DNA from: Escherichia coli
GTDB taxonomy: Bacteria; Pseudomonadota; Gammaproteobacteria; Enterobacterales; Enterobacteriaceae
Length of the DNA: 64,000 bases
Assembly (NCBI RefSeq): GCF_024700885.2
Contig: NZ_CP117016.1
Direction: 5' to 3' (one strand)
Below, piece after piece: positions 14,548 through 30,556 of the stretch. The notes below the pieces were generated by a model that did not search any database, was not told where the DNA came from, and worked only from the letters and a program-made list of their open reading frames with translations. Numbering within the stretch: the first letter of the stretch is position 1; each line of letters opens with the position of its first letter. The position numbers were made by a program, and so were the translations under genes.

Positions 14548-15780
14548 TCACCGCTCCTCCGCCAGCTCGGCAGCCTGATGTTGGCGCACGCGATTAAGCA
14601 ATCCGGCCAGGGTGAAAACGACGATAACGCCTGCCACAACGGCTAACAGATGAAACGGCAAGCGACCGCCGTTAAACCACAGCCAGCGGCCGATTTCGAC
14701 CGAGACCGACATCACCATCAGGATCACCATATTTAGCGATGCGGAGACGGTCCCTTTCGGTAAGTTATTGGAAAACAGCGTAAAGCGGAATAAGGTCGGG
14801 AAGATCAAACCAATCCCGAAAGCATACAGACTGGTGCCCAGCACCGACCACAGCCAGACGTGCGGTGACAGCAGATTGCCGATAATCAACAGCGCGAGGC
14901 CAACCAGTTGAAGGGGTACGGCACGCCAGATAAAGCGCGGTTCGGTCGGATCTTTAACGAAACGCGCCACGATGGCATTCGCGACAATCACCGCGCCGAA
15001 CACCGGAACCTGTGTCCAGGCGAACTGCGAAGTTGTTAAGCCGCCTGCATCGATAAGGATCACCGGCGAGACAGCCACCCAACTCATCATCGGGATATAG
15101 CTTAAAGAGATGGTTGCTGCGCCAAAGAGGAACAGCCGATTGCAAAAGACATTACGAAAATCGCGCAAGACGCTTTTGGCGCTAAACGGAACCGCGCCGC
15201 GCTTCACCGTCTCTGGCATCGTCAGCAGTAAGCCAACAAATGAGATAAAACCCATAACCGCAATGATGGCAAAAAGGACTTTCCAGTGCATAAAGTGCAT
15301 CAGAGCTGCGCCGGAAAGCGGGCCGATAATCGGCGCAATCAGTACGATGGAGGTGATAATCGCCATCAACTTGATCCCTTTTGTCTGTCCGAACGCCTCC
15401 TGCACCGTGACATAACCAACGGTGGCAATAAAACAGATACTGGTGCCCTGAATTGCACGCGCGATAAGAAATTGTGTCATTGACGTGGTGAACATTGTCG
15501 CGGCGCAGGCAAGGGTAAAAATTAACGCCCCGGTAATCAGCACCGGCCTGCGGCCAATTCTGTCGGAAAGCGGCCCCAGCAGCCACTGTAACGCCATACC
15601 GCCAGCAAGATAGAGACTGACGGCAGCAGGGGCCAGACTGACATCGGCATTAAAATCACGGACCACATTAATGATCCCTGGCTGGATCAGATCCGTCGAC
15701 AGGTACGCGGCAAAATCATACAAAATCAACGCCATCGGGAAAAACAGCGTGGCGGCATGGCGGGCAAAAAAACGTGGCAT
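14548..15780 (-). CDS. mdtM: MFS multidrug efflux transporter MdtM
   Basis: Polytopic MFS protein beginning [14 protein letters not shown]; synteny. Confidence 0.85.
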
Positions 15781-16246
15781 AACAAACAACTCCTTGTCCG
15801 GAGAACCCCAATGGGGAAAACGAAATTCAATACCGTCGGTAATGACGAAAGGCAGGCGAGAAGGACAAATGTACTGAATTTCATGTAATCAACCACACTG
15901 CCTGTGAACACACAGACAGAAAAATACCTTCTGACTCCAGGTCAGAATGTATAACGATTACAAATAGTCATCAGCACATTACACCTCTTGAATTGATGGG
16001 TTGCATAGAAAATATACACCTTAAGTGTAATTAAAATTTGCGGTTAATCAAAAGAGTGCGGTGGAAAGGGGAATATCTGCCGGGTACAGGAAATGTAAAA
16101 TGCGAGCCTGTTTCCGAAAAAATGTATCGTTTGCAGAAGAATAAAAATAGCCTGGAAAGCACCTCGGGGAATGGGAAATTGCCGGGTGAGAATGGTTTTG
16201 TTAGTCGCTAAAGTCGGGCCATCTTATCAACAGGTGACGGATCGCC

Positions 16247-17203
16247 ATGACAAACTTCACGACCAGTACGCCGCATGACGCATTATTTAAATCCTTTCTC
16301 ACCCACCCTGACACCGCGCGGGATTTTATGGAGATCCACTTACCAATAGATTTACGTGAATTGTGCGATCTCGACAGCTTAAAACTGGAATCCGCCAGCT
16401 TCGTCGATGAAAAATTGCGGGCGCTACACTCCGATATTCTGTGGTCGGTAGAGACCCGTGAAGGTGATGGCTATATCTATGTGGTGATTGAACATCAGAG
16501 CCGTGAGGATATTCATATGGCCTTTCGCCTGATGCGCTATTCCATGGCGGTGATGCAGCGCCATATCGAGCATGATAAACGCCGGCCGCTACCGCTGGTC
16601 ATCCCGATGCTGTTTTATCACGGTAGCCGCAGTCCTTATCCCTGGTCCCTGTGCTGGCTGGACGAATTTGCCGACCCGGCTACCGCACGGAAAGTTTATA
16701 ACGCCGCGTTCCCGCTGGTGGATGTCACTGTCGTGCCAGACGACGAGATTGTGCAGCATCGCAGAGTCGCCCTGTTGGAGTTGATCCAAAAGCATATTCG
16801 CCAGCGCGATCTGATGGGGCTTATCGACCAACTGGTACTATTACTGGTTACAGAGTGTGCTAATGACAGCCAGATAACTGCGCTGTTAAATTACATTTTA
16901 CTGACTGGCGATGAAGCGCGTTTTAAAGAGTTTATCAGCGAACTAACCAGTCGAATGCCACAACAAAGGGAGCGAATAATGACGATTGCAGAGCGAATTC
17001 ATAATGATGGATGGCTGTTGGGAAGGGAGAGGGGGAGGAAAGAAGGGAAAGTAGAAGGGGAACGGAGCCTCCTCCGATTGTTGTTGCAGAATGGGGCAGA
17101 TCCTGAATGGATACAACGATATACCGGACTCTCGGCAGAGCAAATGCAGGCATTAGAGCAGCCCTTGCCTGAAAGCAAGCGCGATCCTTGGATCGAGTAC
17201 TAA
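16247..17203 (+). CDS. rpnD: Recombination-promoting nuclease RpnD (PD-(D/E)XK, YhgA-like), intact 318 aa
   Basis: N-terminal [11 protein letters not shown] motif typical of the Rpn/YhgA family; synteny between mdtM and yjiR. Confidence 0.8.
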
Positions 17204-17213
17204 TCAGAGACTG

Positions 17214-17247
17214 ATGACAAACGCAAAGCAGCCTGATGCGCTACGCT
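17214..17247. repeat. REP element
   Basis: gcctgatgcgctacgcttatcaggtctac, a canonical REP-like palindrome downstream of rpnD. Confidence 0.6.
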
Positions 17248-17445
17248 TATCAGGTCTACATAACCCATTTAATATATTGAACTTTAAAAATTTTGTAGAC
17301 CTGGTAAGGCGTTCACATGGCATCCGGCATGAACGAAGCGCATTTTGCCTAAGCCATGCTGGAACGTGGAGATGACCCTGCAAAGATAAAACGAGTCACA
17401 CGCTATTCGTGAGAGGAAATCAGGGGGCTCGCCACTATTTTGAAT

Positions 17446-18858
17446 TCATTCCATTGCCCGATACACGGCTTCGCCAATTTGCTTCAGTGCTTCGCGATAG
17501 GTTTCGCTGAGCGGCAAAGCGCAGTTGATGCGCAGACAATTACGGTATTTGCCGGAAGCTGAGAAAATCGAGCCTGCTGCCACCTGGATTTTCATGCGGC
17601 ACAGCTGCCGCGCGACGCAGACCATATCGACCTGTTCAGGCAATTCTATCCACAGTAAAAATCCGCCTTTCGGGCGCGTAATACAGATTTCGCAGGGAAA
17701 ATATTCCCGTATCCAGCAGGTATAAAGTGCCAGATTGCGCTGATAGATCTGCCGCATCCGCCGGATATGGCGATGATAGTGACCTTCCAGCACAAACGTT
17801 GCCGCCGCCATTTGCGTGGACGGCACATTAAAGCTGCTGATGGCGTATTTCATATGCATCAGTTTATCGTGATAACGCCCCGGTGCGACCCAACCCACGC
17901 GCAGGCCAGGTGCAATGCTTTTACTGAACGAGCTGCACAGCAGCACTCGCCCGTCGATATCCCAGGAATGAATGGTCCGCGGGCGCGGATACTCCGTTGC
18001 CAGTTCGCCGTAGACATCATCTTCAAAAATCACAATATCATGACGCTGAGCGAGAGAGAGAACGGCCCGTTTGCGCGCGTCCGGCATAATAAATCCCAGC
18101 GGATTATTACAGTTTGGCACCAGAATGATGCCTTTAATCGGCCACTGTTCCAGCGCCAGTTCCAGCGCTTCAACGCTGATGCCTGTTTCTGGATCGGTTG
18201 GGATTTCAATCACTTTCACGCCCATGCCACGCAGCATCTGCATCGAACCGTAATAACAGGGGGATTCGACCGCGACAATATCGCCCGGTTTACACACCGC
18301 CATTAACGCCAGCGACATCGAGTTATGGCAGCCGCTGGTAATGATGATGTCATCGGCGGTGACCACCGAGCCGCTGTCGAGCATCAGGCGGGCAATCTGC
18401 TCTCGCAACACTCGCTGACCGGCTAACAAGTCATAACCGAGAACGGTTTGCAGATTATGCTGCACCACCCGGCTTAGCTCCCGCCACAGCGGTTTCAGGC
18501 TGGGCGTTTCGACATCCGGCGTGCTTTTACTTAACGGAACAATGGAACTGTCGCTATGCGCCTCCAGCATATCCAGCACCTGATCCCACTGGGTAATTTC
18601 CACCGGGCGCTGCACCGGACGCGTCATCGGCGGTACTGGCGGCTGGGCTTTACGTTGTGCGACAAAATAACCCGAACGCGGCTGCGGAGTGATGAGCTTC
18701 ATCGTCTCCAGCGTCTGGTACGCCTGCTGCACGGTGCTGATGCTGACGCCGTGCTCCTGACTTAAGCTGCGCACCGACGGCAATTTCTCCCCGTGACGAT
18801 ACAGCCCTTGCTCAATCCGCTCGGCAAGTAGAGTCGCCAGATGTTGATAACGCGTCAT
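17446..18858 (-). CDS. yjiR: MocR/GntR-family PLP-dependent transcriptional regulator YjiR
   Basis: N-terminal HTH (GEKLPSVRSLSQEHGVSISTVQQAY) fused to an aminotransferase-like domain; 470 aa. Confidence 0.85.
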   Translation of the reverse strand: MTRYQHLATLLAERIEQGLYRHGEKLPSVRSLSQEHGVSISTVQQAYQTLETMKLITPQPRSGYFVAQRKAQPPVPPMTRPVQRPVEITQWDQVLDMLEAHSDSSIVPLSKSTPDVETPSLKPLWRELSRVVQHNLQTVLGYDLLAGQRVLREQIARLMLDSGSVVTADDIIITSGCHNSMSLALMAVCKPGDIVAVESPCYYGSMQMLRGMGVKVIEIPTDPETGISVEALELALEQWPIKGIILVPNCNNPLGFIMPDARKRAVLSLAQRHDIVIFEDDVYGELATEYPRPRTIHSWDIDGRVLLCSSFSKSIAPGLRVGWVAPGRYHDKLMHMKYAISSFNVPSTQMAAATFVLEGHYHRHIRRMRQIYQRNLALYTCWIREYFPCEICITRPKGGFLLWIELPEQVDMVCVARQLCRMKIQVAAGSIFSASGKYRNCLRINCALPLSETYREALKQIGEAVYRAME

Positions 18859-19034
18859 GCTGTGTTCCTTATTTGGACCATACAGAGAGAAAAACCGGTA
18901 CAGATGAGGCTAAAAAACCGGATGCAGATGCTGTTTTAACCTGTCTGTATGTTAAATAAAACTAATATTTGCATCTGTATTGTGAACTGCCAGAAGGCGG
19001 ATGATGAAGCCTCTGAAAGATGAGGAGGCAGCAG

Positions 19035-19199
19035 ATGGAATTTCACGAAAACAAAGCTAAAGCACCGTTTATTGGACTTGTGCAACTCTGGCAGGCAGTG
19101 AGGCGTTGGCGGCGGCAAATGCAGGCCCGGCGGGTGTTACAGCAGATGAGTGATGAGCGGTTGAGGGATATTGGGTTACGCAGGGAGGATGTGGAGTGA
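19035..19199 (+). CDS. yjiS: DUF1127 small protein YjiS (54 aa)
   Basis: Hand-translated ORF MEFHENKAKAPFIGLVQLWQAVRRWRRQMQARRVLQQMSDERLRDIGLRREDVE; below the ORF-track size cut-off. Confidence 0.7.
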   Translation: MEFHENKAKAPFIGLVQLWQAVRRWRRQMQARRVLQQMSDERLRDIGLRREDVE

Positions 19200-19555
19200 A
19201 CTATGGGCGGCGTGTTGGCAAATGCTGCCTGTCTGCATTCAAAATTGCTACAAAATCCAACCATAAAAGTCGTTTACAACATATTTTTCTGATTTACATA
19301 CAGATAATGACCTGAGCTGTCTCACTGGGGGTCATCATCTATGCGTCCGGGGGGCTGTCACAAAATGGAAAAGGAATAGAACAAAATCATCAGCGGTGAA
19401 TAAAGCGATTCGTTTTAGATCACATTAATGAAATTTTTGTATCAAAAATTAGTTATCGCGCTCACAGTTCATAATGAAACAATTCTCTGCAAATAGATAA
19501 CCGAAGCTTCGTTGCTAGTATCAATTCGCTAATTATACACCTGCCAGAGGATACA

Positions 19556-22096
19556 ATGAAAAATAGAAATCGTATGATCGTGAACTGTGTTACTGCTTCC
19601 CTGATGTATTATTGGAGCTTACCTGCACTGGCTGAGCAGTCGTCAAGTGAGATAAAGATTGTTCGCGATGAATACGGCATGCCGCATATTTATGCCAATG
19701 ATACATGGCACCTATTTTATGGCTATGGCTATGTAGTAGCACAAGATCGCCTTTTTCAGATGGAAATGGCACGTCGCAGTACTCAAGGGACTGTCGCGGA
19801 AGTGCTTGGCAAAGATTTTGTGAAATTTGATAAAGATATCCGTCGTAACTACTGGCCGGATGCTATCCGGGCGCAAATTGCTGCCCTTTCCCCAGAGGAT
19901 ATGTCCATTCTGCAAGGCTACGCTGATGGAATGAATGCCTGGATTGATAAGGTAAATACCAATCCAGAGACGCTCTTACCAAAACAGTTTAATACATTTG
20001 GCTTTACTCCTAAGCGCTGGGAACCGTTTGATGTCGCGATGATATTTGTGGGCACCATGGCAAACCGCTTCTCTGATAGCACTAGCGAAATTGATAATCT
20101 GGCACTGCTAACGGCTTTAAAAGATAAATATGGTGTATCACAAGGCATGGCGGTATTTAATCAGTTGAAATGGCTGGTAAACCCATCAGCGCCAACCACT
20201 ATTGCCGTACAAGAGAGTAGCTACCCACTTAAATTTAATCAGCAAAACTCGCAAACAGCAGCTCTGTTGCCACGCTACGATTTACCTGCACCAATGCTTG
20301 ACCGACCAGCAAAAGGGGCGGATGGCGCACTGCTGGCGTTAACAGCAGGGAAGAACCGGGAAACTATTGCTGCACAATTTGCACAGGGTGGTGCCAATGG
20401 TCTGGCGGGGTATCCAACGACCAGCAATATGTGGGTGATCGGCAAAAGCAAAGCCCAGGATGCGAAAGCAATCATGGTAAATGGTCCGCAGTTTGGCTGG
20501 TATGCGCCTGCGTATACTTATGGTATTGGTCTGCACGGTGCTGGTTATGATGTCACTGGCAATACACCATTTGCCTATCCTGGGCTGGTTTTTGGTCATA
20601 ATGGTGTGATTTCCTGGGGATCAACGGCAGGTTTCGGCGATGATGTCGATATTTTTGCTGAACGGCTGTCGGCAGAGAAACCAGGCTACTACTTGCATAA
20701 TGGTAAGTGGGTGAAAATGTTAAGCCGTGAGGAAACCATTACGGTGAAAAATGGTCAGGCAGAGACCTTTACTGTCTGGCGTACGGTGCATGGCAACATT
20801 CTCCAAACTGACCAGACGACACAAACGGCTTACGCTAAATCCCGCGCATGGGATGGTAAAGAGGTGGCGTCTTTGCTGGCCTGGACTCATCAGATGAAGG
20901 CCAAAAATTGGCAGGAGTGGACACAGCAGGCAGCGAAACAAGCACTGACCATCAACTGGTACTATGCTGATGTAAACGGCAATATTGGTTATGTTCATAC
21001 TGGTGCTTATCCAGATCGTCAATCAGGCCATGATCCGCGATTACCCGTTCCTGGTACGGGAAAATGGGACTGGAAAGGGCTATTGCCTTTTGAAATGAAC
21101 CCTAAGGTGTATAACCCCCTGTCGGGATATATTGCTAACTGGAACAATTCTCCCCAAAAAGATTATCCCGCTTCGGATCTGTTTGCCTTTTTGTGGGGGG
21201 GGGCAGATCGCGTTACGGAGATCGACCGACTGCTTGAGCAAAAGCCACGCTTAACTGCTGATCAGGCATGGGATGTTATTCGCCAAACCAGTCGTCAGGA
21301 TCTTAACCTGAGGCTTTTTTTACCTACTCTGCAAGCAGCGACATCTGGTTTGACACAGAGCGATCCGCGCCGTCAGTTGGTGGATACATTAACACGTTGG
21401 GATGGCATCAATTTGCTTAATGATGATGGTAAAACATGGCAGCAGCCAGGCTCTGCCATCCTGAACGTTTGGCTGACCAGTATGTTGAAGCGTACCGTAG
21501 TGGCTGCCGTACCTATGCCATTTGATAAGTGGTACAGCGCCAGTGGCTACGAAACAACCCAGGACGGCCCAACTGGTTCGCTGAATATAAGTGTTGGAGC
21601 AAAAATTTTGTATGAGGCGGTGCAGGGAGACAAATCACCAATCCCACAGGCGGTTGATCTGTTTGCTGGGAAACCACAGCAGGAGGTTGTGTTGGCTGCG
21701 CTGGAAGATACCTGGGAGACTCTTTCCAAACGCTATGGCAATAATGTGAGTAACTGGAAAACACCTGCAATGGCCTTAACGTTCCGGGCAAATAATTTCT
21801 TTGGTGTACCGCAGGCCGCAGCGGAAGAAACGCGTCATCAGGCGGAGTATCAAAACCGTGGAACAGAAAACGATATGATTGTTTTCTCACCAACGACAAG
21901 CGATCGTCCGGTGCTTGCCTGGGATGTGGTCGCACCCGGTCAGAGTGGGTTTATTGCTCCCGATGGAACAGTTGATAAGCACTATGAAGATCAGCTGAAA
22001 ATGTACGAAAATTTTGGTCGTAAGTCGCTCTGGTTAACGAAGCAGGATGTGGAGGCGCATAAGGAGTCGCAGGAAGTGTTGCACGTTCAGAGATAA
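19556..22096 (+). CDS. pac: Penicillin G acylase precursor (846 aa)
   Basis: Signal peptide ([26 protein letters not shown]), length and sequence match my memory of E. coli penicillin G amidase. Confidence 0.9.
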
Positions 22097-26466: not shown

Positions 26467-28029
26467 TTATTTCAGCAGCTTATCCAGCATGTTGATATCG
26501 TCGTTGTTGTGCAGGTGCGGCACAGTCCAGCCGTTCTGGTCGTATTCCGACAGGCAGCGATCAACCATCGCCATCATCTTGTCCATATTGCCGGAGCTTT
26601 GTGCCTGGCGCAGACACTGCAGGCGAATCTCATCCTGGCTACCGGAGTAGTTGATTTCATACAGTTCGTGACGACCACCAAATTCGCTGCCAATAGCATC
26701 CCACATCAGTTTGAGGATCTTGATGCGCTGGACGTGATCCATACCATTCGAACCGCGCACATACTTCGCCAGATACTGGTCGATCTGCGGATTGTTCAGG
26801 TCACGGGCACTGGAAGGAAGATAGATCAGGCCACTGGTAACGTTGCGTTCGATAATGTTTTTGATCTTCGCGTAGGCCATTGGTGCCAGTACGCGATAGG
26901 TTTGCAGTGCGGCATGATCCGGTAAATAAGCCCCGTTGACCCACGGCGTCGCTTCTGAGCACATCGAGTCACTCAATGCCCAGAAGGTGTTGCGCCACGC
27001 CACCACTTCACCGAGATCGGCCTGCACGCCCCGGAACTCCAGGGTGCCGGTACATTCAAGTGATTTTTTCAGCAGTGCCGTGATGAAATCGAGTTTCACT
27101 GCCAGGCGCACACAGGCTTGCAGCGGATACATACGGGCGAAACCGCCTTCCATCGTCCAGCGACGGCAGCGATCGAAATCGCGGTAGATCAACACGTTTT
27201 CCCACGGGATCAGTACGTTATCCATCACCAGAATCGCATCGTTCTCATCGAAGCGGCTGGAGAGCGGGTAGTCGTACGGCGAGCCGGTAGCACCCGCGAC
27301 CATCTCATAAGAGGCGCGGGAGATTAATTTCACGCCATCGGCATCCATTGGCGCAACGAACATCAGTGCGAAGTCCGGGTTTTCGCCCATCACTTGTGCC
27401 GAGCCGAAGCCAATCATGTTGTAGTGAGTCAGCGCCGAGTTGGTGGCAACCACTTTCGCACCGCTGACGATAATCCCGGCGTCAGTCTCTTTTTCCAGCT
27501 TGATGTAAACGTCTTTTACTTTATCGGTCGGCAAATGACGATCGATCGGTGGGTTAACAATCGCGTGGTTAAAGTAGAGGCCAGTTTCCTGAATACGGGT
27601 GTACCAGTTACGGGCGTTCTGCTCGAACTGACCGTAAAAGCCCGGATTCGCGCCCAGTGCGCAACCGAAAGCGGCTTTGTAGTCTGGGGTGCGGCCCATC
27701 CAGCCATAGCTCAGGCGTGACCACTCAGCGATGGCGTCGCGTTGCTGGCGCAGGTCGTCGGCACTTTTCGCCACGCGGAAGAATTTATGGGTATAGCCGC
27801 CGCTGCCGGTGTCGGTGTTCCAACACAGAGAGTCCTGCATCTCCGGTTTGTGCAGCGCGTCGTACAGTTGGGCAACAGACGCTGCCGCATTACGAAATGC
27901 CGGATGAGTGGTGACGTCTTTCACTCGCTCGCCATAGATATAGATCTCGCGACCATCCTGCAGGCTTTTCAGATACTCTTCCCCGGTGAACGGACGTTGG
28001 GTACTGGCGCGGAAATCTTCTGGTTTCAT
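26467..28029 (-). CDS. hpaB: 4-hydroxyphenylacetate 3-monooxygenase, oxygenase component
   Basis: 520 aa; recognised as HpaB. Confidence 0.9.
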   Translation of the reverse strand: MKPEDFRASTQRPFTGEEYLKSLQDGREIYIYGERVKDVTTHPAFRNAAASVAQLYDALHKPEMQDSLCWNTDTGSGGYTHKFFRVAKSADDLRQQRDAIAEWSRLSYGWMGRTPDYKAAFGCALGANPGFYGQFEQNARNWYTRIQETGLYFNHAIVNPPIDRHLPTDKVKDVYIKLEKETDAGIIVSGAKVVATNSALTHYNMIGFGSAQVMGENPDFALMFVAPMDADGVKLISRASYEMVAGATGSPYDYPLSSRFDENDAILVMDNVLIPWENVLIYRDFDRCRRWTMEGGFARMYPLQACVRLAVKLDFITALLKKSLECTGTLEFRGVQADLGEVVAWRNTFWALSDSMCSEATPWVNGAYLPDHAALQTYRVLAPMAYAKIKNIIERNVTSGLIYLPSSARDLNNPQIDQYLAKYVRGSNGMDHVQRIKILKLMWDAIGSEFGGRHELYEINYSGSQDEIRLQCLRQAQSSGNMDKMMAMVDRCLSEYDQNGWTVPHLHNNDDINMLDKLLK

Positions 28030-28279
28030 GTCGACCTCTACAGTATTAATCGGAATACGATTGTTAATTTTGTGTTTTGTTTTTGTTATTCAATTGAAGC
28101 TTGCAGGGGCGATTACGGGAAGACACTTTTGGGACAATGGCTGGTACTTTTCAGGTCGGGTACGGTTTTGTGATCGAGGTCGCTTTTCGCGATTTTTAAC
28201 GTTACTAAATCCCCTTGCTCCAGGCGGAGAAAGGGGAATAGCAGGTGGTGCCTGGTTTCCCGTTAAGGCTAAGGGATTT

Positions 28280-29170
28280 TCACGTCACAGGTACTTTTTT
28301 GGCACGATAAGCACTGGGCGAGCAACCGACTAAACGATTAAAAAAGCGCGCAAAATAAGCCGGATCCTTAAAACCGAGTTGCCAGGCAATATTGTTCACG
28401 GCGTTATCAGAAAACAGCAGCAGCCGCTTGGCTTCTCGTAGCTGCCTGTCGAAAATCAACCGTTTTGGCGGACGGTTGGCAAAGCGGCGGCAGATGTCCG
28501 TGAGGCGTGATTCGGTGATATGCAGTTCGTTAGCGTAATCCGGTACTGTCCAGTGCTGATGAAAATGGCTTTCAATCAGCATATTAAAACGCTGGAACAG
28601 TTTTAATTCTCCGCGCATTCCGCTGGCGGCATGGTCGTCGAGTTTTGCGTTACGCAGCAGTAGGGTGAACACTGCCTGTGCCAGTAACGTCAGGGTGTGT
28701 TCCCGTCCAGGCAGTTGTTCCACCGATTCCCGCTCTATCAGTTGCCAATAGTGTTCCAGCGCCGCCAGTTCGTCGGGTTTATCTGCCAGTGACAGGCAAA
28801 TCCCCGGCAGGCCGAAGGTTTCCCGAGTGCCCGGATAAAGAACTTCCAGCAGGGGCCAGATCAGATCTTCCCGTACCGTCAACACATGACCGTCGGCGTC
28901 AGACTCCGTAATAAACGCATGAGGTACTGACGGCGGCGTCAGGACAAACAGGGGCGCTTCCACCGAGTAGCGATGATCGTCAAGCTGTAGCTCAATCTGT
29001 CCGCTATTGAGGAAATGCATCTGAAAGTACTGTTCGTGGCGATGTGGCAGCATATGGCGGCCAAAAAATGCCGCCATGCGGGCGAATGACTGATAATGCA
29101 CATCGTCCGTGCCCAGGCTTTCATCGTACTCTTTGCTGATATCAATATTGGCAATCTGACGGTCACACAT
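28280..29170 (-). CDS. hpaA: AraC-family activator of hpaBC
   Basis: C-terminal AraC-type HTH; cluster position. Confidence 0.85.
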   Translation of the reverse strand: MCDRQIANIDISKEYDESLGTDDVHYQSFARMAAFFGRHMLPHRHEQYFQMHFLNSGQIELQLDDHRYSVEAPLFVLTPPSVPHAFITESDADGHVLTVREDLIWPLLEVLYPGTRETFGLPGICLSLADKPDELAALEHYWQLIERESVEQLPGREHTLTLLAQAVFTLLLRNAKLDDHAASGMRGELKLFQRFNMLIESHFHQHWTVPDYANELHITESRLTDICRRFANRPPKRLIFDRQLREAKRLLLFSDNAVNNIAWQLGFKDPAYFARFFNRLVGCSPSAYRAKKVPVT

Positions 29171-29179
29171 CGTCGTTCC

Positions 29180-30556
29180 TTACGGGGTCGCTCGCGGACG
29201 GGAGGACTGCATTGGAATCGCCCAGATAATCCCCGCACCAATCACCAGCAGCGCGGCAACAAACCACAATCCACTGTTAAAGCTGCCGGTCAGATCTTTC
29301 AACCAGCCGATCATAAACGGACTTAACGCTGAACCAATGTTGCCTGTGGCGTTGATCACCGCAATACCGATCGCTCTTGCCCGCAGGCTGATGGACTGAT
29401 CCGGTGTTGTCCAGAAAATCGCCATTGCGCTGAATGATCCGGTCGAAGCCATAATGATCCCCAGCATCTGGAGCATGTTGTGATCAGTTGCCGAAGCCAG
29501 TAACCAACCAGCGGCAGCGAACAAATAAGGAAGGGCGGTGTGATGCCTTCGTTCCTGGCGGCGATCTGAGTGACGGCTCCAGTAGATCATCCCGAGAATG
29601 GTACAAATCTGCGGTACGGCGGCCAGCAGGCCGATGGTGATATTACTGCTGCCCTGATTAAAGCTTTGCAGGATCTGCGGTGTCCAGATGCTGATCGCAC
29701 TAAGTGTGTTGGTCAGGCAGAAATACGCCAGGGTATACATCATCACCACCGGAGTGAAGATCTCCCGCCACATGCTGCGTTGTTGCATGGCATGGTGGCT
29801 GATGGCTCCCTCAGGCTGAACCAGCGTCAGACGATCGTTATCCATCATCTCTTGCAGGCATTTTTTGTCTTCTTTCGTCAGCCACTTAGCTTTGTCCGGT
29901 GAGTCATCAAGCCAGAACCACACCATGACGCCGAGTAATACCGACGGGAAGCCTTCCAGCAAAAACAGCCACTGCCAGCCTTTTAATGCCATTACGCCAT
30001 CCAGCGACAAAATGTAGCCGGAAACGATAGAGCCCAGCGCTGTCGTTACCGGCATTGCCACCATAAACAAGGCGTTGGCACGGGCGCGGAAATAGGCCGG
30101 AAACCAGAAGGTTAAATACAGCAGAATGCCAGGCAGAAAGCCGGCTTCGGTAATGCCAACCAGTATACGCAGTACGTACAAGCTGGTGGGGCCAGTGGCA
30201 AACATGGTAGCAGTAGAGGCGATGCCCCAAAGCACCATGATGGTGGCGATCCAGCGCCGTGCACCGACAATACTCAGCATAATGTTGCTGGGAATGCCGA
30301 AGATGACATAAGCGGCGTAGAACAGGGTGGTGGCGAGGCCAAACATGGTGGCGCTCAGACCGAGGTCGCGTCCCATCGTGAGTCCGGCAAAGCCGATGTT
30401 GATGCGATCAAGGAACGAGAAGATAAACAGCACGAACAGAAAGACGATCAGGCGGCGAAACAGCTTCTTAATAACCGCCTGTTGTCCGGTAGTCAGCGCT
30501 TTATGCTGATTCGCCGGATCGATACTCTCCGGTATGGCAGGTGAGGTGTCGCTCAT
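29180..30556 (-). CDS. hpaX: 4-hydroxyphenylacetate MFS transporter
   Basis: 458-aa MFS protein; cluster position. Confidence 0.85.
   Translation of the reverse strand: MSDTSPAIPESIDPANQHKALTTGQQAVIKKLFRRLIVFLFVLFIFSFLDRINIGFAGLTMGRDLGLSATMFGLATTLFYAAYVIFGIPSNIMLSIVGARRWIATIMVLWGIASTATMFATGPTSLYVLRILVGITEAGFLPGILLYLTFWFPAYFRARANALFMVAMPVTTALGSIVSGYILSLDGVMALKGWQWLFLLEGFPSVLLGVMVWFWLDDSPDKAKWLTKEDKKCLQEMMDNDRLTLVQPEGAISHHAMQQRSMWREIFTPVVMMYTLAYFCLTNTLSAISIWTPQILQSFNQGSSNITIGLLAAVPQICTILGMIYWSRHSDRRQERRHHTALPYLFAAAGWLLASATDHNMLQMLGIIMASTGSFSAMAIFWTTPDQSISLRARAIGIAVINATGNIGSALSPFMIGWLKDLTGSFNSGLWFVAALLVIGAGIIWAIPMQSSRPRATP

Follow-up and report, generated by a model that had tools for sequence, protein, structure and literature searches.

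Does this stretch of the Escherichia coli chromosome carry a complete rpnD gene where K-12 has a broken one and, if so, what does the complete gene encode? The stretch, referred to below as the window, comprises 64,000 nucleotides of contig NZ_CP117016.1 (assembly GCF_024700885.2). We reanalyzed the rpnD region of the window by comparison with K-12, with other complete E. coli genomes, and with the published work on the Rpn family. All of our observations on rpnD match published descriptions and are in this sense already known. They allow, however, a correct reading of a gene for which K-12 is a misleading guide.

Identity of the gene

According to the list of open reading frames, positions 16247-17203 of the plus strand form one continuous frame of 318 amino acids from ATG to TAA, as originally predicted. 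The product matches PF04754 (Transposase_31, YhgA-like) with residues 8-210 on profile positions 1-202 of 203 (E 1.2e-85; 286.6 bits against a cutoff of 21) and TIGR01784 (Rpn family recombination-promoting nuclease/putative transposase) with 170.6 bits against a cutoff of 52.1. These matches speak both for the frame and for its assignment to the Rpn/YhgA-like PD-(D/E)XK family, which had been proposed at the outset and which the conservation of the residues essential in RpnA supports as well (see below). With the NCBIfam equivalog model for RpnA, the product scores 374 bits, below the cutoff of 583, and the window gene is therefore not RpnA.

Identical DNA (100% over 1651 bases) is found in NZ_AP022087.1, where the gene encodes WP_000181151.1, named [quoted passage not shown] in RefSeq. 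The gene order yjiN, mdtM, rpnD, yjiR, yjiS is the same in the window, in NZ_AP022087.1 and in MG1655. Upstream of rpnD, yjiN and mdtM lie on the minus strand; downstream, yjiR lies on the minus and yjiS on the plus strand. Judged by sequence and gene order, 16247-17203 is a real gene rather than a chance ORF, and it is the orthologue of rpnD, formerly yjiP/yjiQ. The features of the locus are collected in Table 1.

Table 1. Features of the rpnD locus, in window coordinates.
Feature	Position	Strand	Basis
rpnD long frame (RpnD_L)	16247..17203	+	ORF list, PF04754, TIGR01784, identical RefSeq locus
Transposase_31 / YhgA-like domain, with PD-(D/E)XK core	16268..16876	+	Pfam match, residues 8-210
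Catalytic-core codons D63 (16433-16435), E82 (16490-16492), Q84 (16496-16498)	16433..16498	+	Alignment with RpnA
Codon 104, CAG (Gln); TAG in the K-12 lineage	16556..16558	+	Alignment, 41-mer counts
Candidate internal promoter, sigma-70-like ATGACA-18-TAAATT, TG-extended	16863..16892	+	Consensus scan; 87 bases upstream of the internal start
Shine-Dalgarno-like AGGGAG	16967..16972	+	Sequence reading; GGGAG kept in K-12
Predicted intragenic RpnD_S, 74 aa, in frame from M245	16979..17203	+	ATG with Shine-Dalgarno sequence, alignment with RpnA
Tract of four-residue units, 36 bases (three units) absent from K-12	17012..17071	+	Alignment with K-12
REP-like palindromic sequence, rpnD-yjiR intergenic, marking the rpnD 3' boundary	17228..17308		Inverted repeat, sub-threshold Rfam match

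The stop codon in K-12 is the exception

In MG1655, rpnD (b4584, NC_000913.3 4568998-4569918) is annotated as a pseudogene. It occupies the same site as the window gene, between mdtM and yjiR, and the two loci are collinear except for a single indel, with a mean column identity of 95% including the flanks. Pairwise alignment and codon extraction place the decisive difference at codon 104 (16556-16558 in the window), which is CAG in the window and TAG in K-12. The stop codon cuts K-12 rpnD into frames of 103 and 190 amino acids, which are the old yjiP and yjiQ. The K-12 defect is thus a single nonsense substitution and not a frameshift. An identical intact ORF was looked for in K-12 by alignment, and K-12 does not carry one; the split K-12 copy and the intact window copy of the original prediction are accounted for by TAG versus CAG at this codon. 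Leaving the stop codon out of consideration, residues 1-244 of the K-12 protein are about 96% identical to those of the window protein, with 10 replacements.

The distribution of the two alleles was assessed with 41-base probes centred on this codon. With the 28-base word of megablast, the central mismatch blocks cross-matching, so that the TAG and CAG sets are separate. Among 5426 complete E. coli genomes, the K-12 probe with TAG matched 339, and the same probe with CAG matched at least 3455. When evenly spaced rows of the TAG set were listed, 29 of 30 bore K-12, laboratory-strain or K-12-like names, among them MG1655, DH1, DH5a, J53, EMG2, ER strains and NBRC 3301. An intact gene is normal for the species, with K-12 as the exception, and this has been in print since 2015: most E. 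coli encode complete YjiP, with a premature stop in K-12 (Kingston et al., 2015, PMC4498929). The initial emphasis on a frame intact in this strain, as something distinctive, must therefore be given up.

We had considered that amber suppression (glnX44 in NEB strains, MG1655-derived constructs) might be the main source of the published RpnD activity. This idea was dropped because the 2015 paper used a synthesised yjiP allele without the stop codon (PMC4498929).

The nuclease domain

RpnA (YhgA; Kingston 2017, Zhong 2023, PDB 7TH0) is 54% identical to the window protein over the whole length, although it is a paralogue that, unlike the window gene, resides at the feoC-bioH locus. Mutagenesis of RpnA identified D11, D63, E82, Q84 and R94 as essential, and the D63A, E82A and Q84K proteins lost all activity (PMC5350276). 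All five residues are conserved in the window protein with identical numbering (BLASTP against K-12 RpnA). The PDDE motif is also present, and the residues of the catalytic core are invariant or nearly so in 42 homologues. In the comparison of codons 1-244 between window and K-12, dN is 0.018 and dS 0.171, for a ratio of 0.10 that is comparable to the 0.12 found for mdtM. The nuclease domain is under strong purifying selection.

Divalent-cation-dependent DNA endonuclease activity and toxicity on overexpression are known from in vitro work on RpnA and from in vivo work on repaired K-12 RpnD (PMC5350276, PMC4498929). Overexpression of rpnD raised RecA-independent recombination about 4.7-fold (PMC5350276), or 4.5-4.7-fold when the values for repaired K-12 yjiP/rpnD from both papers are taken together (PMC4498929, PMC5350276). 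It was accompanied by a 94% loss of recipient viability, measured as CFU, and overexpressed rpnD was among the quickest inducers of an SOS reporter (PMC5350276).

An internal start and a predicted small protein

The original prediction had suggested looking for an internal in-frame start near the 3' end of the gene, and there is one. The in-frame ATG at 16979-16981 encodes M245 and is preceded, six bases upstream, by AGGGAG (16967-16972), a good Shine-Dalgarno sequence. The last 120 codons contain two further in-frame ATGs, for M237 and, near the 3' end, M300; a Shine-Dalgarno sequence is found at M245 only. Internal start and Shine-Dalgarno sequence occur likewise in K-12 rpnD. M245 aligns with RpnA M244, the equivalent internal methionine, and the motif MTIAER is common to both proteins. 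No exchange of M245, T246 or A248 occurs in 42 homologues, which extend to 60% identity and belong to Escherichia, Citrobacter, Salmonella and Klebsiella.

Published experiments on K-12 concern the same kind of start. Mutation of the ribosome-binding site and M244 of RpnA abolished RpnA_S (Zhong et al., 2023, PMC10400941). Ribosome profiling with retapamulin showed that each of the five K-12 rpn genes, rpnD included, has an internal site of in-frame initiation (bioRxiv 10.1101/520783), and small proteins from all five were detected by tagging (PMC10400941). Long forms were detected by tagging only for RpnB, RpnC and RpnE (PMC10400941); for RpnD_L in MG1655, the stop codon explains the failure. 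All K-12 rpn genes have internal transcription start sites, and their short transcripts outnumber the full-length ones (PMC10400941). Together, these points suggest that the window most likely encodes a 74-amino-acid RpnD_S, nested in frame within RpnD_L.

The promoters are less clear from the sequence. A consensus scan found three sigma-70-like sites where shuffled sequences led us to expect 2.9, which is chance level, and the internal promoter in Table 1 is a candidate on these terms. Upstream of 16247, the scan found no promoter-like site on the plus strand. A 16-base inverted repeat (16184-16199 and 16289-16304, 88% complementary, 89 bases apart) spans the rpnD start codon and could lead to folding at the 5' end of the long mRNA.

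Repeat polymorphism in the C-terminal tail

Compared with the 49-residue tail of RpnA, the tail of the window protein has additional repeat units and is extended by 13 residues at the C-terminus; counted from M245, it comprises 74 residues. The tract of four-residue units accounts for 20 of these residues, starting at residue 12 of RpnD_S, 11 residues past M245; K-12 has YIKG EQRI there, and its tail is 12 residues, or three four-residue units, shorter than that of the window. Published Rpn_S repeat units consist of one hydrophobic residue and three charged or glycine residues, and the variation begins 8-20 residues past the internal methionine, in the first helix (PMC10400941). The number of repeats decides which short form neutralises which long form (PMC10400941).

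Length variation in steps of four is also what we see among relatives. Close homologues have full lengths of 306, 310, 314, 318 and 322 amino acids, and Escherichia tails have 62, 66, 70, 74 and 77. In relatives from Citrobacter, Salmonella and Klebsiella, the tails range from 53 to 81 amino acids in steps of four, with units such as LQEG and KQEG. At the DNA level the units are degenerate, and only protein alignments reveal them: Tandem Repeats Finder, run on 16900-17210 with a score as low as 30, reported no tandem repeat. The length class of 318 amino acids is common. A 151-base query across the tract matched over the same span in 10 of 30 evenly spaced rows, with at least 96.7% identity, and over a span 12 bases shorter in 9 of 30. 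The 90%-identity cluster nearest to the window protein has 3918 member sequences.

Compared with K-12, the tail is a local hot spot of divergence. Two 150-base segments covering it are 68.7% and 86% identical to K-12, in contrast to mostly 96-99% in the flanks, and 21 nonsynonymous differences fall in 62 aligned codons. The resulting dN of 0.159 is 9-fold higher than the 0.018 of the domain.

A Pfam scan of the 74-residue tail and of the K-12 tail returned only noise, with E of about 0.1; a newer family, PF27070, is listed on RpnD-type proteins in a large protein database. Structure prediction for RpnD_S from 23 tails gave a long helix over the repeats (residues 3-37) and two short helices (42-49 and 53-60), with a pLDDT of 66.8. 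Against 350,542 PDB chains, the top match of this model was 7TH0, “Escherichia coli RpnA-S”, with a probability of 0.91 but an E-value of 0.44, a TM-score of 0.63 normalised to the target, and 32% identity. The match is consistent with RpnD_S being similar to RpnA_S, but is not proof of it. The full-length AlphaFold2 model, from a 42-sequence alignment, has a mean pLDDT of 63 and is too uncertain to use; its Foldseek search against the PDB returned nothing below E 0.03, with Tdp2 and SLFN12 as uninterpretable top matches. When the sequence of the whole protein was searched against PDB chains, none reached E <= 0.01. This search misses RpnA-S because RpnA-S is too short and too diverged.

A probable toxin-antitoxin pair and its rivals

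We consider it likely that intact rpnD encodes a nuclease toxin, RpnD_L, together with an intragenic antitoxin, RpnD_S, in the manner of other Rpn genes. This interpretation builds on the intact frame, the family, the catalytic residues, the synteny, the internal start with its Shine-Dalgarno sequence, the conservation and the repeat polymorphism, all observed here. Nuclease activity, toxicity, antitoxin action and a role in defence are attributed to RpnD by analogy with RpnA, RpnB, RpnC, RpnP2 and repaired K-12 RpnD. In particular, antitoxin action has been demonstrated for RpnA and would apply to RpnD by analogy, and the published tests of antitoxin function and phage defence concern RpnA, RpnB, RpnC and plasmid RpnP2 (PMC10400941). 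RpnP2_LS (Zhong 2023), compared here by description only, resembles RpnD in family and gene-within-gene layout; it is plasmid-borne and protects experimentally against T-even phages, whereas RpnD is chromosomal. The PADLOC 2023 defence models did not match rpnD.

By this analogy, the 318-residue frame would give rise to RpnD_L, a Mg-dependent and largely sequence-nonspecific DNA endonuclease of the PD-(D/E)XK type; when free, it would cause DNA damage and be toxic. The 74-residue RpnD_S would be translated from an internal transcript, beginning at M245 (ATG 16979), and is identical in sequence to the C-terminal tail of RpnD_L. The long first helix of RpnD_S could then pair with this tail and hold the nuclease inactive, and the number of four-residue units in the helix, three more than in K-12, would set which long and short forms pair. 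If RpnD_L were released, for example when a phage infects, the resulting DNA damage would abort the infection. Freed RpnD_L may also stimulate RecA-independent recombination.

This last step is the core of a rival explanation, according to which RpnD is mainly a recombination-promoting nuclease for horizontal transfer rather than a defence toxin-antitoxin. It would nick or cut near the adjoining variable region and so promote RecA-independent replacement of that region. The increase in recombination on overexpression of the repaired K-12 gene fits this idea, as does the position of rpnD at the border of a slot whose content varies between strains. However, deletion of rpnA-D left the basal recombination frequency unchanged (PMC5350276), the effect is confined to overexpression and may arise secondarily from DNA damage, and the conserved internal start and repeat polymorphism are accounted for by the toxin-antitoxin model instead. 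We judge recombination unlikely to be the main function, although the two explanations are compatible and not mutually exclusive. Still less likely, in our view, is that the frame is open but RpnD_L is not made or is inactive, leaving the small C-terminal protein as an orphan regulator, as in K-12. K-12 indeed makes the small protein despite its broken long frame, short K-12 rpn transcripts are more abundant than full-length ones (PMC10400941), and the lack of a promoter-like site on the plus strand upstream of 16247 points the same way. Against it speak the dN/dS of 0.10 in the nuclease domain, the retention of every catalytic residue, and a frame that is open in most genomes.

The possibility that the product is an insertion-sequence transposase is close to negligible, and we rejected it. 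It stems from family names only (Pfam “Transposase_31”, NCBIfam “ISNCY family transposase”), to which the patchy distribution of rpn genes among bacteria (PMC10400941) may be added. With the NCBIfam ISNCY equivalog NF007418, the product scores 391.4 bits, below the cutoff of 583. No inverted or direct repeats or target duplications bracket rpnD, and the gene has one conserved chromosomal site, with a median of one place per genome in 4719 genomes. Nor did the published analysis find evidence for autonomous transposition (PMC10400941).

The toxin-antitoxin interpretation can be taken a step further, to a version that we find rather doubtful: the 318-residue allele would be an active chromosomal phage-defence toxin-antitoxin, and the series of 306, 310, 314, 318 and 322 residues would represent mutually incompatible “lock and key” types. 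If this were true, a strain acquiring a foreign rpnD tail through recombination where the variable region begins could poison itself, rpnD would limit or guard exchange at this hot spot, and K-12 would represent a natural state with an orphan antitoxin.

Consequences for annotation

The correct annotation of the window gene is intact rpnD with a nested 74-residue rpnD_S, and not “putative transposase”. The K-12 pseudogene is unfit as a reference state for rpnD, and strains of this kind suit work on native RpnD_L and RpnD_S better than K-12 does. The nuclease toxin of this strain is potentially active, while the functional data come from the repaired K-12 allele with its shorter tail. Beyond the right annotation of rpnD, the significance of the finding is small.

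Surroundings of the locus

The rpnD locus has some match in 4719 of 5426 genomes, with at least 80% of it covered in 3501. Comparison of loci agrees with the observation, made from the window sequence at the start, that rpnD lies beside the variable yjiS-yjiA slot, although the link of rpn to a variable island had been described before (PMC5350276, PMC12707154). K-12 has the restriction cluster yjiT-mcrBC-symE-hsd in this slot. In the window, the slot between yjiS (19020-19199) and yjiA contains an intact penicillin G acylase gene, pga (846 amino acids, 19556-22096, plus strand), and not defence genes, so that there is no local defence-island context. Other strains differ further. ExPEC XM (NZ_CP025328.1) is without mdtM, yjiR and yjiS, and its intact 306-residue rpnD abuts DUF262/GmrSD, symE and hsdS. 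WCHEC005215 (NZ_CP092973.1) is without rpnD, yjiR and yjiS and has IS1 and brnT/brnA beside yjiA. The boundary of the rpnD locus varies among strains.

Several minor observations concern the neighbouring DNA. In the pga-yjiA-yjiX-btsT arrangement, at least 80% of the query was covered in 1068 of 5426 genomes; pga is open in the window and annotated as frameshifted in NZ_AP022087.1, otherwise the closest genome. The REP-like element between rpnD and yjiR contains an 18-base inverted repeat (17246-17263 and 17291-17308, 89% complementary) and overlaps a sub-threshold minus-strand match to Rfam ES036 at 17252-17294 (28.8 against 37.6 bits); nothing in an Rfam scan of 15700-19600 reached the gathering score. 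Upstream of rpnD, a 57-residue ORF with a TTG start (16038-16211, plus strand) is uninterrupted in the window as well as in K-12, and the two versions differ by several amino acids. It is not annotated in K-12, where the 11-residue ytiE is annotated nearby on the opposite strand, and it is probably a chance ORF.

Farther away, 4-hydroxyphenylacetate genes (a reductase subunit, hpaB, hpaA and the start of hpaX) lie at about 26467-29449, downstream of btsT. Their names come from an annotated genome stretch with 99.7% identity, which reaches as far as window position 29449; minus-strand ORFs continue past this point to about 36345. Between yjiK and a ytiA-like gene, a 758-residue ORF with internal repeats (8381-10657, minus strand) is about 95% identical to a “pentapeptide repeat-containing protein” of NZ_AP022087.1 and has no counterpart in the compared K-12 stretch. 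A 1746-residue ORF at 575-5815, also on the minus strand, corresponds to the inverse autotransporter IatD according to the annotation of a related genome.
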